Source of the DNA: a virus | Lineage: Duplodnaviria > Heunggongvirae > Uroviricota > Caudoviricetes | DNA length: 14,367 nucleotides | Reading direction: 5' to 3' (one strand) | Virus record (IMG/VR): IMGVR_UViG_2562617113_000020 | Span: 1 to 14,367 of that record | In this document: one piece after another, positions 7,702 through 14,367 of the stretch | Position numbering within the stretch: the first letter of the stretch is position 1 | Layout: each line of letters begins with the position of its first letter | The notes under the pieces: generated by a model | Databases searched by the model: none | What the model saw: only the letters and a program-made list of their open reading frames with translations | What the model was told of the DNA's origin: nothing | Made by a program: the position numbers and the translations under genes

Positions 7702-8364
7702 ATGCATCGTATAGACACGAAAACCGCGCAGAAGGATAAGTTCGGCGCGGGTAAAAACGGTTTTACCCGTGGTAACCCCCAGACTGGCACGCCTGCTACC
7801 GATCTGGATGATGACTACTTTGACATGTTGCAGGAAGAGCTTTGTGGCGTGGTGGAGGCATCCGGTGCCAGCCTGGAGAAGGGGCGAAACGACCAGTTGC
7901 TTACCGCGCTTCGTGCGCTGCTGTTAAGTCGCAAAAATCCGTTTGGCGATATCAAATCGGACGGCACGGTGAAAACGGCTCTTCAAAACCTTGGTTTGGG
8001 AGAAGCGGCAAAACGGGATGTGGGGACAGGGGAAAATCAGATACCGGACATGGCCTCTTTTGCCAGTGGTGATGGATGGATGAAATTACCCAACGGGAAA
8101 ATCCTGCAATATGGTCGTGGTGCGGTTACGCCGACATTATCGACGCAAACAATGAGAATTACATTCAGCATCCCTTTCCCCAAAAAAGCGGACTGCGCCA
8201 TGCTTACTCATTCTGGTGATGGCGGTGCGCCTTTAGGCGCTGGGCGAGGGTTCGTGATGACTGCAGAAGGCCCAACGTTAACCGGCTTTAATTCTGCTTA
8301 CAGAACGTCATCAACCAGCGACACGGTATCGATGAATTACAGTTGGTGGGCTGTTGGTGAGTAA
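7702..8364 (+). CDS. Tail fibre protein, current orientation (constant N-terminal part 7702-7992 joined to invertible variable part Sv 7993-8364)
   Basis: RBS CGGAG at 7691-7695; 220-aa product; the gix-like crossover site lies inside the ORF (codons ALQNLGLGE), as in phage Mu S and e14 stfP. Confidence 0.8.
7979..8004. repeat. gix/hix-like recombination site (left): CTCTTCAAAACC-TT-GGTTTGGGAGAA
   Basis: 12+2+12 bp site with AAACC/GGTTT symmetry around a central dinucleotide; a 15-bp perfect inverted repeat (7991-8005 vs 9824-9838) is shared with the right site. Confidence 0.75.
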
Positions 8365-8375
8365 TTTTATTCAGG

Positions 8376-8828
8376 GTGATTTATATGAACGAATATGTTT
8401 ATAGCGCAAGGCATAATGCTTTTTTCCCTGTGGATATGATTGATAAATATAAATCAGAGGGATGGGATTTATCAGATGCTAAGGAAGTGAATCAAAATAT
8501 TATCAGTGAGTTTATGGCTGAACCGCCACAAGGAAAAATCCGTATTGCCGGAAATGATGGGCTGCCTGCGTGGGCAGATATTCCTCCACCCACGCATGAA
8601 GAGCTTATTGAAATTACTGAATCAGAAAGACAGCTATTAATTAACCAGGCCAACGAATACATGAACAGTAAACAATGGCCCGGTAAAGCCGCTATTGGTC
8701 GTCTGAAAGGTGACGAACTGGCGCAATATAATTTGTGGCTGGATTATCTGGACGCACTGGAGCTGGTCGATACTTCCGGTGCGCCAGATATTGAATGGCC
8801 TACGCCTCCGGCAGTTCAGGCCAGATGA
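8376..8828 (+). CDS. Tail fibre assembly protein (Tfa / Mu U-like), expressed in current orientation
   Basis: 150-aa product with N-terminal NAFFP motif and conserved C-terminus (LDYLDALELVDTSGAPDIEWPTPP) typical of Tfa chaperones. Confidence 0.85.
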   Translation: MIYMNEYVYSARHNAFFPVDMIDKYKSEGWDLSDAKEVNQNIISEFMAEPPQGKIRIAGNDGLPAWADIPPPTHEELIEITESERQLLINQANEYMNSKQWPGKAAIGRLKGDELAQYNLWLDYLDALELVDTSGAPDIEWPTPPAVQAR

Positions 8829-9402
8829 CATCCGGCGCGGTGCTGGTATCTGTTGCCGTCACCGCGTCAATGTAATCCAGCACAGCGTTAAGGCGGGTTG
8901 TTTCTGCCTGCGTCAGTTTACGTCCGGCCTGCAATTTCAGCTGAATCAGACTGATGGAGGCCATTGCAGTATCAATCAGCGACTGGCGCTGTGCTTCTGC
9001 TGCATCTACTGCTGCGCCGTGCTGTGCCTCGGTATCCGTCACCCATTTCTCACCATCCCATTTATCGTATGGCGTTAACGGGGCGATAGTGGTTGTATTA
9101 TCAGGGTAATCACCCGGAGCTGTGATTTCTTTTGATTCCCCTGTTTCGGTGCTAAAAACGATTTCACCGCGATGGTCTGGCATATATTCCCATGATTTTA
9201 AATCTGCTGAACGGCAGATAGTATAACCAGCCTTATATATACCAGGAGCATCTAAACAGGAATACGCCGGAATACCGACACCCACAACAAGATATTCGGT
9301 TGATGTGGAAAGATATTCCTTCGTCTCAGCATCAAAATTATAAACGGTAATGTTTCCTGCCTTTGTAGTAATGAGTTCGCTATTTAATACGGCTTTATTC
9401 AT
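8800..9402 (-). CDS. Alternative tail fibre assembly protein (Tfa' / Mu U'-like)
   Basis: 200-aa product with conserved Tfa C-terminus (LDYIDAVTATDTSTAPDVIWPELPEA); convergent with and overlapping the + strand tfa by 29 bp at the centre of the invertible segment. Confidence 0.85.
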   Translation of the reverse strand: MNKAVLNSELITTKAGNITVYNFDAETKEYLSTSTEYLVVGVGIPAYSCLDAPGIYKAGYTICRSADLKSWEYMPDHRGEIVFSTETGESKEITAPGDYPDNTTTIAPLTPYDKWDGEKWVTDTEAQHGAAVDAAEAQRQSLIDTAMASISLIQLKLQAGRKLTQAETTRLNAVLDYIDAVTATDTSTAPDVIWPELPEA

Positions 9403-9838
9403 CAGGCTGCCCTCACGATATAGTTAAATGCGACGTTGCGCGGCCGGGTTTCAGAACCACCAACCGATACCGTAGAAATTGAATTTGCCGTAATAAGTTC
9501 CCCGAAAGCATCAGCCGTAACTACGAACCGACCTCCCGTTGGATCAAAACCTGTTAGCGCATAGTACTTGTCAAACCAGTGCCCATGAGAAGCAAATAAA
9601 TGGTCTTGAGATGTCAACAAACCACGAGAGGAATCCACCCCGCGCCCATCATCCCATCCACGAATAAATTCACCGCGTAAATCAGGCAATTTATTTGTCG
9701 GGTAAGCCTTTGCCAGTTCCGGGTATTCTTCAGCAGAAAAAGCCGCACCATTGCATTTCAGCCAGCCTGTTGGCGGAGTGGCTGAAGGCCACGGAACAGG
9801 CACCCCAACAGGTAATGCTGAGCCTTCTCCCAAACCAA
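9402..9838 (-). CDS. Alternative tail-fibre variable C-terminal segment (S'v), lacking its own N-terminus; would fuse in frame to the constant part after inversion
   Basis: Reverse-strand ORF whose stop overlaps the tfa' start (ATGA); reading frame across the right gix site encodes N-V-G-L-G-E, matching N-L-G-L-G-E at the left site, so inversion gives an in-frame fusion. The 9839-9878 extension with ATG is read-through into the gix-gin spacer. Confidence 0.7.
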
Positions 9839-9850
9839 CGTTTATGAAAA
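9825..9850. repeat. gix/hix-like recombination site (right): TTCTCCCAAACC-AA-CGTTTATGAAAA
   Basis: Inverted copy of the left site; inner half-sites are 12/12 identical, outer half-sites diverge; lies ~55 bp upstream of the invertase start. Confidence 0.75.
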
Positions 9851-9904
9851 TGCAGAAATAACGAGCAAATGGCATCATTCCTGCTTTTGTCAGGGAGATC
9901 TACC

Positions 9905-10459
9905 ATGCTTATTGGCTATGTACGTGTGTCAACAAATGACCAGAACACAGATCTACAACGTAATGCGCTGAACTGTGCAGGATGCGAGCTGATTTTTGAA
10001 GACAAGATAAGCGGTACAAAGTCCGAAAGGCCGGGACTGAAAAAACTGCTCAGGACATTATCGGCAGGTGACACTCTGGTTGTCTGGAAGCTGGATCGGC
10101 TGGGGCGTAGTATGCGGCATCTGGTCATTCTGGTTGAGGAGTTGCGCGAACGTGGCGTTAATTTTCGCAGCCTGACGGATGCTATTGATACCAGCACACC
10201 GATGGGGCGTTTTTTCTTTCATATGATGGGTGCCCTGGCTGAAATGGAACGAGAACTGATTGTTGAACGAACAAAAGCTGGACTGGAAGCTGCTCGCGCA
10301 CAGGGACGAATTGGTGGACGTCGTCCCAAACTTACACCAGAACAATGGGCACAAGCCGGAAGATTAATTGCAGCAGGAACTCCTCGCCAGAAGGTGGCGA
10401 TTATCTATGATGTGGGTGTATCGACTTTGTATAAGAAGTTTCCGGTCGGAGATAAATGA
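9905..10459 (+). CDS. pin: Serine DNA invertase, Gin/Pin/Hin/Cin family
   Basis: Product MLIGYVRVSTNDQNTDLQRNAL...LVVWKLDRLGRSM...RSLTDAIDTS...GRFFFHMMGALAEMERELIVERT...GRIGGRRPK is a near-canonical Gin/Pin sequence (catalytic Ser in VRVSTNDQ); RBS AGGGAG at 9892-9897; 184 aa from ATG 9905 (the ORF track begins at an upstream ATG, 9869). Confidence 0.92.
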   Translation: MLIGYVRVSTNDQNTDLQRNALNCAGCELIFEDKISGTKSERPGLKKLLRTLSAGDTLVVWKLDRLGRSMRHLVILVEELRERGVNFRSLTDAIDTSTPMGRFFFHMMGALAEMERELIVERTKAGLEAARAQGRIGGRRPKLTPEQWAQAGRLIAAGTPRQKVAIIYDVGVSTLYKKFPVGDK

Positions 10460-10516: not shown

Positions 10517-11692
<1,176 letters not shown>

Positions 11693-13124
11693 ATGTCTGA
11701 ATTTGAAGTGTTGGCACAGCATCTGCTGAAGGAAGCCGAGGCGGAAGAAAAGCTGCGACAGGAAAATGATAAAAAGCTTATCGAGAAAGTGCTGGAAATC
11801 TATGATCAGAAGTATGTGGCTGAATTACTGAGAAAAGTCGGAAAAAATGAGTGGAGCCGTGAAACCATTAACCGCTGGATTAATGGCAAGTGTTTACCAA
11901 AATCGTTGACTTCAGTAGAAGAGTCTCTTCTGCGTAAGATGCTACCAGAACCACCTGCAAACCATCCGGAATATGCTTTCCGCTTCATTGACTTATTTGC
12001 TGGAATTGGAGGGATACGGAAAGGTTTTGAGGCCATTGGAGGCCAGTGTGTTTTTACCAGTGAATGGAATAAAGATGCTGTGCGTACATACAAGGCCAAC
12101 TGGTTTAACGATGAACAGGTGCATAAATTCAATCTCGATATTCGGGAAGTCACGCTGAGTGATAAAACCGATGTATTGGAAACGGATGCTTATGCATATA
12201 TTGATGAGCATGTGCCGGATCATGATGTGCTTCTTGCGGGGTTCCCGTGCCAGCCATTTAGCCTTGCTGGTGTTAGTAAGAAAAACTCACTTGGTCGTGC
12301 GCATGGTTTTGAATGTGAAGCACAAGGAACACTTTTTTTGACGTGGCACGTATTATACGAGCAAAAAACCGGCAATTTTTGTGCTGGAAAATGTCAAAAA
12401 TCTGAAGAGCCATGATAAGGGTAAAACTTTCAAAGTCATTATGGAGACCCTTGACGAGCTGGGCTACGAAGTTGCCGATGCTGCAGAAATGGGAAAAAAC
12501 GATCCAAAGATTATCGATGGGAAGCATTTTTTGCCTCAGCATCGTGAACGCATTGTTCTGGTCGGATTTAGACGAGATCTGAATATTCACAAGGGGTTTA
12601 CCTTGCGTGATATCAGTCGTTTTTATCCGGAACACCGCCCATCATTTGGTGAATTGCTGGAGCCTGTAGTCGACAGTAAATATATACTTACGCCAAAACT
12701 ATGGGAGTACCTTTATAACTACGCCAAAAAGCATGCAGCCAAGGGGAATGGTTTTGGCTTTGGGTTGGTCAATCCTGAGAATAAGGAAAGCATTGCACGC
12801 ACACTTTCTGCCAGATATCACAAAGACGGATCAGAAATTCTTATTGATCGTGGTTGGGATATGGCAACGGGAGAGGCTGACTTTATGAATGAGAGTAACC
12901 AGGCTCGTCGACCACGCAGGCTGACTCCCCGAGAGTGCGCACGCCTTATGGGGTTTGAAAAACCTGGAGGGAAACCATTCCGTATTCCGGTTTCAGATAC
13001 TCAGTCATATCGGCAGTTCGGTAACTCCGTTGTGGTGCCAGTATTTGAAGCCGTTGCCAGACTTCTGGAACCCTATATCCTCAAAGCTGTTTCTGCTGAT
13101 GCTGGTAAGACTGGGCAGCCTTGA
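11693..13124 (+). pseudogene. ecoRIIM: EcoRII-like / Dcm-like C5-cytosine DNA methyltransferase (CCWGG family); frame interrupted by two -1 indels in a T7 tract (12333-12339) and an A6 tract (12363-12368)
   Basis: Motif I FxGxGG ([15 protein letters not shown]) and motif IV PCQ ([12 protein letters not shown]) in the first frame; [15 protein letters not shown] and C-terminal [11 protein letters not shown] in a second frame; the intervening frame reads [10 protein letters not shown], so two single-base deletions explain the split (ORFs 11651-12415 and 12381-13124). Confidence 0.85.
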
Positions 13125-13130
13125 GAACAC

Positions 13131-13153
13131 CTCCCGGCCTTTTAAGCCGGGAG
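13131..13153. terminator. Hairpin between the convergent M and R genes (CTCCCGGC-cttttaa-GCCGGGAG); possible bidirectional terminator
   Basis: 8-bp perfect stem between the two stop codons (13122-13124 and 13159-13161); no flanking U-tract on either side. Confidence 0.35.
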
Positions 13154-13158
13154 TCAGC

Positions 13159-14367
13159 CTATGATAGTTCAGCGTAAAGTTCTATCAGCTCAGTAATGAA
13201 TGCTCCGAGCGTTATTAATTCTTCTCTAACTGCTTCTGGGTATTTTTTATGTAAAGTTGATGGTACAACGAGTCTGACACCCGCATCTTTCATTTCTCGG
13301 TATTGTGCTGAAGAAACACCTTCTTGCAGCGTAAATAAATGTACCTGATGGATTTTATCTGCTTCATTCAGTATCTGACGCCAGCGATCTTTGCAGGTGG
13401 TCTTTACTGCCAGCATACGTAAGTTTTCTACAGGAAATTCAACGTTATGATATGCCTCTGCTGAAGGAAACAGGAAATCTGGTTTTTTATTACCTTCAGT
13501 AACTGCCTGAGTGGAGAAATGCCGTAGTCCGTGCTCGATAAAAAGCTTCTCTAGGTGAAGTTCAAGTGATTTACCTGCCCTTGATTTACGTCGATTACTG
13601 ACAGAGTTGGCTAATGCAATAAACTCATCTACAGAATCGAATCCTTTCTTAATAATATCAAGAACATGTAATTCCTCGACGAGTAGAAAAATATCATACT
13701 CGACACGCCGACGGTCAATCAGTTGCTCATCTGGATCCTTGGAGTTTTTAGCATAATGGCCAGCAGCATATTGAATAATTTCGTTTCCAGAAGGAAAACG
13801 CTTCTTCCAGTCTTCAGGAATAACATATTTATGATTTACTGGAGTTTGCTGAAGAGACAATCCGCCCAAAATTTGTCCGGCAGGGCCGGAAATTAGGGTT
13901 CCAGGTATGATTTCGCCAATAGCAGACTCGATGATATCCTCTTCATCGGGATTGACGCAGACCCATATATCTACCTCGGAACAGTCAGTGTTCTGTTCGT
14001 TTAACCTGAAGGCAAGAATTGTGAGGGCTCCTGTATTTTCAGGGTTCTGTAATGGACTTCCTCTCCCCCAGCGCGTAATTCTTTTTTCGCTTCGGGTCTT
14101 ACCAAAATAACGGTTGTTGTAATAAATTGCGCGTGCTTGGGTATCAGGGCAATCATGGGATGATACATGCGCAGTAAGGAAGACTGAAGGGTTCAGTTCG
14201 CGAGTATGATTGATAGATGGAAAAAGCTTTTCAACGATATTTGAGGGGATATAAAGTCCGACCTGATGGCCACCTGTTGCGCCTGTGTCGTTTGCAGAAA
14301 GGCGTTTGATGTAGATAAAGTAATTCCCGCTTGCGATATCAAGCAGCCAGTTATGAAAAACCGACAT
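13159..14367 (-). CDS. ecoRIIR: EcoRII-like type IIE restriction endonuclease (CCWGG), apparently full length (402 aa)
   Basis: Product MSVFHNWLLDIASGNYFIYIKRLSANDTGATGGHQVGLYIPS... corresponds, from memory, to the R.EcoRII N-terminal effector domain and C-terminal catalytic domain; convergent with the methyltransferase as in EcoRII; start codon is the last three bases of the window. Confidence 0.9.
   Translation of the reverse strand: MSVFHNWLLDIASGNYFIYIKRLSANDTGATGGHQVGLYIPSNIVEKLFPSINHTRELNPSVFLTAHVSSHDCPDTQARAIYYNNRYFGKTRSEKRITRWGRGSPLQNPENTGALTILAFRLNEQNTDCSEVDIWVCVNPDEEDIIESAIGEIIPGTLISGPAGQILGGLSLQQTPVNHKYVIPEDWKKRFPSGNEIIQYAAGHYAKNSKDPDEQLIDRRRVEYDIFLLVEELHVLDIIKKGFDSVDEFIALANSVSNRRKSRAGKSLELHLEKLFIEHGLRHFSTQAVTEGNKKPDFLFPSAEAYHNVEFPVENLRMLAVKTTCKDRWRQILNEADKIHQVHLFTLQEGVSSAQYREMKDAGVRLVVPSTLHKKYPEAVREELITLGAFITELIELYAELS

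Follow-up and report, generated by a model that had tools for sequence, protein, structure and literature searches.

The EcoRII-type restriction-modification (R-M) pair at one end of the 14,367-nucleotide stretch of DNA analysed here (the window) is very probably an ordinary one, and the two breaks in its methyltransferase gene would then be, as sequence comparison suggests, homopolymer errors of a draft genome produced with 454 and Ion Torrent chemistry. We infer that neither indel is present in the DNA of the strain itself. The window corresponds to positions 83-14449 of contig AHZD02000023.1 in assembly GCA_000247665.4, to which it is 100% identical over the 12,675 nt compared, and the contig belongs to the draft genome of Escherichia coli O157:H43 strain T22. 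The underlying R-M system is a common and well-understood EcoRII-family module.

The endonuclease gene occupies 13159-14367 on the minus strand and is open throughout, encoding 402 aa without interruption, as the first-pass annotation had read it. Identified from the open reading frame (ORF), from an alignment to 1NA6 (the crystallised R.EcoRII) and from Pfam profiles, the protein matches 1NA6 from end to end (805 bits) with 345 of 401 residues identical (86%), the pairwise alignment holding 56 amino-acid differences from R.EcoRII. Pfam recognises an N-terminal effector domain, EcoRII-N (PF09217, E 5.5e-60), and a C-terminal catalytic domain, EcoRII-C (PF09019, E 2.4e-71). The active-site residues of EcoRII-C are Glu271, Asp299, Lys324 and Glu337 (PMC2770665). 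The window enzyme has the same four residues at the aligned positions; the residue-by-residue comparison with R.EcoRII that had been proposed earlier thus turned up no substitution at these sites. Given the 86% identity, the enzyme is predicted to cleave CCWGG in a reaction that needs two sites and is blocked by C5 methylation of the inner cytosine.

The partner gene lies on the plus strand in two pieces. The N-terminal piece of the C5-cytosine methyltransferase (11693-12415, 240 aa, from the ORF list and Pfam) starts at 11693 or 11651 according to the ORF scan, runs out of frame from about codon 215 and ends at a stop at 12413-12415. It contains motif I (FAGIGG) and motif IV (GFPCQPFS), and in Pfam it matches DNA_meth_N and positions 1-86 of the DNA_methylase profile. 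The C-terminal part, in its true frame, extends over 12369-13124 (ORF list and Pfam); as mechanically called, the second ORF spans 12381-13124 with a GTG start, in another frame than the N-terminal piece and overlapping it. This part carries the ENV motif, QxRxR, the target-recognition region and GNSV, and covers positions 107-320 of the 324 in the DNA_methylase profile.

Alignment to an intact homologue reduces the damage to exactly two single-nucleotide deletions, 31 nt apart. Pairwise alignments and reconstruction place the first at 12333-12339, a run of seven T where intact relatives have eight (codons ~214-216, inside an 11-residue stretch), and the second at 12363-12368, a run of six A where intact relatives have seven (codons ~224-226, directly upstream of the ENV motif). 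Both shifts fall in the 24-residue segment between the PCQ and ENV motifs, and the affected T8 and A7 tracts are the two longest homopolymers in the R-M pair, each contracted by one base. With one T and one A put back, the gene reads as a single ORF of 477 aa whose product is 100% identical to the methyltransferases of the intact relatives L013 and L001. The repaired protein scores 927 bits on the Dcm-type NCBIfam model PRK10458 (cutoff 710) and is, on this profile evidence, a member of the Dcm/M.EcoRII subfamily. When the gene was reconstructed in silico, no decay was seen beyond the two deletions. The earlier description of an EcoRII-like pair, in which the methyltransferase requires two frame corrections within 12320-12380, holds for both genes.

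Comparison with relatives was made by megablast of the R-M stretch against complete E. coli genomes, which returned about 263 records that match it along its full length at 99% identity or more. The R-M interval measures 2,770 nt in these records and 2,768 nt in the window. The near-clonal strain L013 (GCA_014376025.1) has no mismatch to the window over 12,075 nt, and the only two gaps in that alignment are the two methyltransferase bases. Strain L008 (GCA_001953095.1) has one mismatch over 14,468 nt and three gaps, the same two in the methyltransferase gene and a third adjoining an N. Among the matches listed for the identical 402-aa endonuclease, an intact 477-aa methyltransferase was adjacent in 10 of 10 contigs. 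The methyltransferase gene as such occurs in about 261 of the 5,426 complete E. coli genomes, and related R-M pairs, with roughly 80% nucleotide identity or less, are found on about 1,900 enterobacterial plasmids.

Run lengths were assessed with a 93-nt query spanning both homopolymers and their flanks, searched against the complete E. coli genomes. The exact 93-mer with T8 and A7 was recovered from at least 253 of the 263 records carrying the methyltransferase gene, and the sole demonstrated length variant among complete genomes is that of strain AH02, with T7. The exact 240-aa broken fragment was matched by only two contigs in a very large assembly collection, namely AHZD02000023.1 itself and the Logan contig ERR4087473_128. 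Within T22, five other homopolymers of at least 7 nt lie in the 12 kb compared, all of correct length, and some 19 kb of unique T22 sequence outside the insertion sequence and the methyltransferase gene contains no indel relative to the clonal relatives.

454 and Ion Torrent commonly miscount homopolymers, a bias that SOLiD data should not share. Indels that come with no substitutions are a usual mark of sequencing error, not divergence. The T22 draft, which dates from 2013, was generated from SOLiD V4 mate pairs, Ion Torrent PGM reads (233,333, mean 161 nt) and Roche 454 Titanium reads (73,764, mean 619 nt) by manual assembly in CLC, and reports a chromosome of 4.96 Mb with 5,587 predicted genes (PMC3668004). 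Calculated from these figures, coverage is about 7.6x for Ion Torrent and about 9x for 454. Gene density in T22 is 1.13 per kb, against approximately 0.98 annotated features per kb in four complete E. coli records, which makes the gene count about 15% too high for the genome size, an excess of around 700 genes. Such an excess would fit one frameshift-split gene in every 7-10 kb or so.

Indel signatures were also found in other records and in another element of the window. ERR4087473_128 comes from an unrelated run, is 2.1 kb long and carries a different allele, with 14 substitutions relative to its best reference. Within its 2.1 kb, seven homopolymers of at least 6 nt are each one base short, both methyltransferase runs included. 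Judged only by these systematic contractions, the double contraction in this contig is probably a platform artefact, and it follows that the changes from T8 to T7 and from A7 to A6 can arise from the platform alone. In AH02 (NZ_CP081701.1; L002 / L019) the methyltransferase gene has T7 instead of T8, the endonuclease gene has T7 instead of T6 near window position 14082, and both are annotated as frameshifted, together with a tape-measure gene, a DUF2635 gene and a DUF2713 gene, giving five frameshifted CDS within about 52 kb. This suggests that AH02 is an assembly with homopolymer errors. The AH02 prophage is located at a different chromosomal site.

The element in the window itself is ISCro1, of the IS66 family, which occupies 1-2616, right where the source contig begins. 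Four single-base indels, namely an added A near 2055, an added A near 2185, a missing A near 2265 and a missing G near 2306, split its transposase gene (1015-2586) into three ORFs. There are no substitutions relative to ISCro1 of strain ES5, and at each of the indel sites two references have the same sequence. Two of the four indels lie outside homopolymers. A look-up of the broken IS66 transposase fragment matched only AHZD02000023.1. The breaks in ISCro1 are probably a collapsed-repeat or consensus error.

We read the methyltransferase breaks as artefacts because they are contractions only, without substitutions against a clonal relative, because the T22 draft is a SOLiD, Ion Torrent and 454 product, and because ISCro1 in the same window likewise shows indels without substitutions. 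The proposed course of events is that flow-based 454 or Ion Torrent chemistry read T8 and A7 each one base too short and that the frameshifts entered the draft assembly as consensus errors; with the two runs only 31 nt apart, the same reads would cover both. The R-M locus of T22 would then be a normal, intact type IIE module of the EcoRII family (CCWGG), a cargo at one end of an SfV/Mu-tail-type prophage beside ssrA. Its methyltransferase gene most likely specifies the 477-aa protein found in the clonal relatives, an enzyme that would methylate CCWGG and so protect the chromosome from the neighbouring two-site-dependent endonuclease.

Several points run counter to an artefact. One might have expected high-coverage SOLiD data to correct homopolymer errors. 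The five correct runs of at least 7 nt and the roughly 19 kb free of indels mean that errors are not everywhere in the draft, and two of the ISCro1 indels fall outside homopolymers. Biology, moreover, does not forbid a real loss of the modification gene, which is tolerable in E. coli given Dcm. Set beside known homopolymer-length errors, the T22 breaks resemble those of 454, Ion Torrent and uncorrected long reads in being single-base contractions in the longest A/T runs, without substitutions, and in repeating the pattern seen in ERR4087473 and AH02; they differ in the company of two ISCro1 indels outside homopolymers and in that equally long runs nearby are correct. The first-pass annotation had set an active endonuclease beside an inactive modification gene, a premise left unsupported by the homopolymer contractions, the 454/Ion Torrent draft and the intact clonal relatives. 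That annotation had also foreseen an ordinary EcoRII-family system should a corrected sequence restore a full-length methyltransferase ORF, and strong indirect evidence now favours this. The main value of the case is one of caution, as the paradox of a live endonuclease with a dead methylase vanishes once the sequencing source of the draft is known.

The strongest competing explanation, which we consider unlikely, is that the frameshifts are real, the modification gene of T22 having recently become a pseudogene while the endonuclease stayed intact and the cell survives through chromosomal Dcm methylation of CCWGG. The uninterrupted endonuclease ORF with all its catalytic residues is compatible with this, homopolymers are natural slippage hot spots as well, and all but a few of the complete E. 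coli genomes (5,367 of 5,426) have a dcm-type gene. A review describes how the solitary Dcm, which acts on CCWGG as EcoRII does, lessens the killing of hosts that have lost the EcoRII R-M system (PMC3874152). Because the two share this target, a real loss of the modification gene would be survivable and unsurprising; the suggestion of the first-pass annotation that Dcm could cover for a dead methyltransferase is therefore sound in its reasoning. If the frameshifts were real, an EcoRII-type endonuclease, intact and potentially active, would remain with no methylase of its own and depend wholly on Dcm, and T22 would offer a natural case of a solitary chromosomal methylase disarming a selfish R-M element, which the Dcm/EcoRII experiments predict (PMC3874152).

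However, a single frameshift would already be inactivating. In a lineage that shows no substitutions in 12 kb relative to L013, another frameshift 31 nt from the first is not expected, and there is no selective reason for a second inactivating event in a gene that is otherwise free of decay. The platforms used are error-prone at homopolymers, the identical pattern arises artefactually in ERR4087473, and ISCro1 in the same window shows indels without substitutions. Apart from the artefact-laden ERR4087473_128, the broken fragment appears in no other assembly of the very large collection.

It is very improbable that the homopolymer tracts make the methyltransferase phase-variable, with the record capturing the OFF state, or that transcriptional or translational slippage rescues the enzyme. 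Each break does affect a T or A run of 7-8 nt, and the AH02 record also has T7. Runs of 7-8 nt are nevertheless short for phase variation in E. coli; exactly T8 and A7 are kept in 253 of the 263 complete-genome records, the demonstrated variants come only from AH02 and ERR4087473, assemblies with many other frameshifts or contractions, and two separate shifts would both need to be reversed. A phase-variable R-M system was rejected, tract length being invariant in accurate assemblies.

That the two ORFs form a naturally split, still active two-subunit C5-methyltransferase of the M.AquI type is scarcely credible: the N-terminal piece keeps motifs I and IV, the C-terminal piece keeps ENV through motif X, and the ORF overlap could permit translational coupling, yet the split is unique to the T22 record (the relatives examined all have a single 477-aa ORF), out-of-frame residues take the place of a 16-residue segment between and after the shifts, and the GTG start of the second ORF was chosen mechanically. 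A two-subunit methylase was rejected on the single ORF of the relatives and the destruction of the segment before the ENV motif.

Returning to the preferred reading of an ordinary EcoRII-family module, the pair resembles the EcoRII system in its two-domain endonuclease (EcoRII-N and EcoRII-C), with the four active-site residues kept and 86% identity over 401 aa, and in its partner, a C5-methyltransferase of 477 aa once repaired that has a Dcm/EcoRII-type N-terminal domain and is encoded adjacently and convergently. Unlike EcoRII, the pair sits at the end of a chromosomal prophage beside ssrA and not on a conjugative plasmid, and its methyltransferase gene carries, in this one record, the two single-base deletions. 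With chromosomal Dcm the methyltransferase shares the NCBIfam subfamily PRK10458 and the expected CCWGG target, and its gene has about 69% nucleotide identity to annotated E. coli dcm genes. It differs from Dcm, which is solitary, in being a prophage-borne paralogue with a partner endonuclease.

The two genes are adjacent and convergent, separated by a 34-nt intergenic spacer (13125-13158) in which an inverted repeat, CCCGGC...GCCGGG, can be read from the sequence. This GC-rich repeat may act as a terminator; a scan for terminator-like structures listed no site within 13125-13158. In relatives the R-M pair lies at one end of an SfV/Mu-tail-type prophage, immediately next to ssrA/smpB, and is preceded by a Pin-type invertase gene and a GIY-YIG gene.

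The neighbours of R-M pairs with at least 99% identity vary. Most of the loci surveyed (L001, L002, L004, L006-L015) have ssrA/smpB next to the pair. In AH02 the neighbours are a DinI gene and an integrase gene, and in NT1F10 the neighbour is an ABC-three-component system. Pairs of the same identity are also present on three records of 30-44 kb classed as plasmids (H123-H125). This suggests that the R-M module travels with related prophages or phage-plasmids.

Between the invertase gene and the methyltransferase gene of the window is a LEM-3-like GIY-YIG gene (10520-11293, minus strand). Its product matches the PADLOC model PD-T4-3 from end to end (E 1.6e-140) and also matches a PHROG family of unknown function. 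With the PD-T4-3 match beside the R-M pair, this prophage end has two defence modules next to each other. Strain ES5 carries the GIY-YIG gene, and its match to the window stops just before the R-M pair.

Further upstream, a 1.86-kb segment with tail-fibre and tail-fibre-assembly genes (7986-9843) is bounded by 20-nt inverted repeats at 7986-8005 and 9824-9843, and is adjoined by the gene for the Pin-type serine invertase (9869-10459). The orientation of the segment in the window is opposite to that in L010 and L011, so that it looks like a host-range switch of the Gin/Pin style in its other state.
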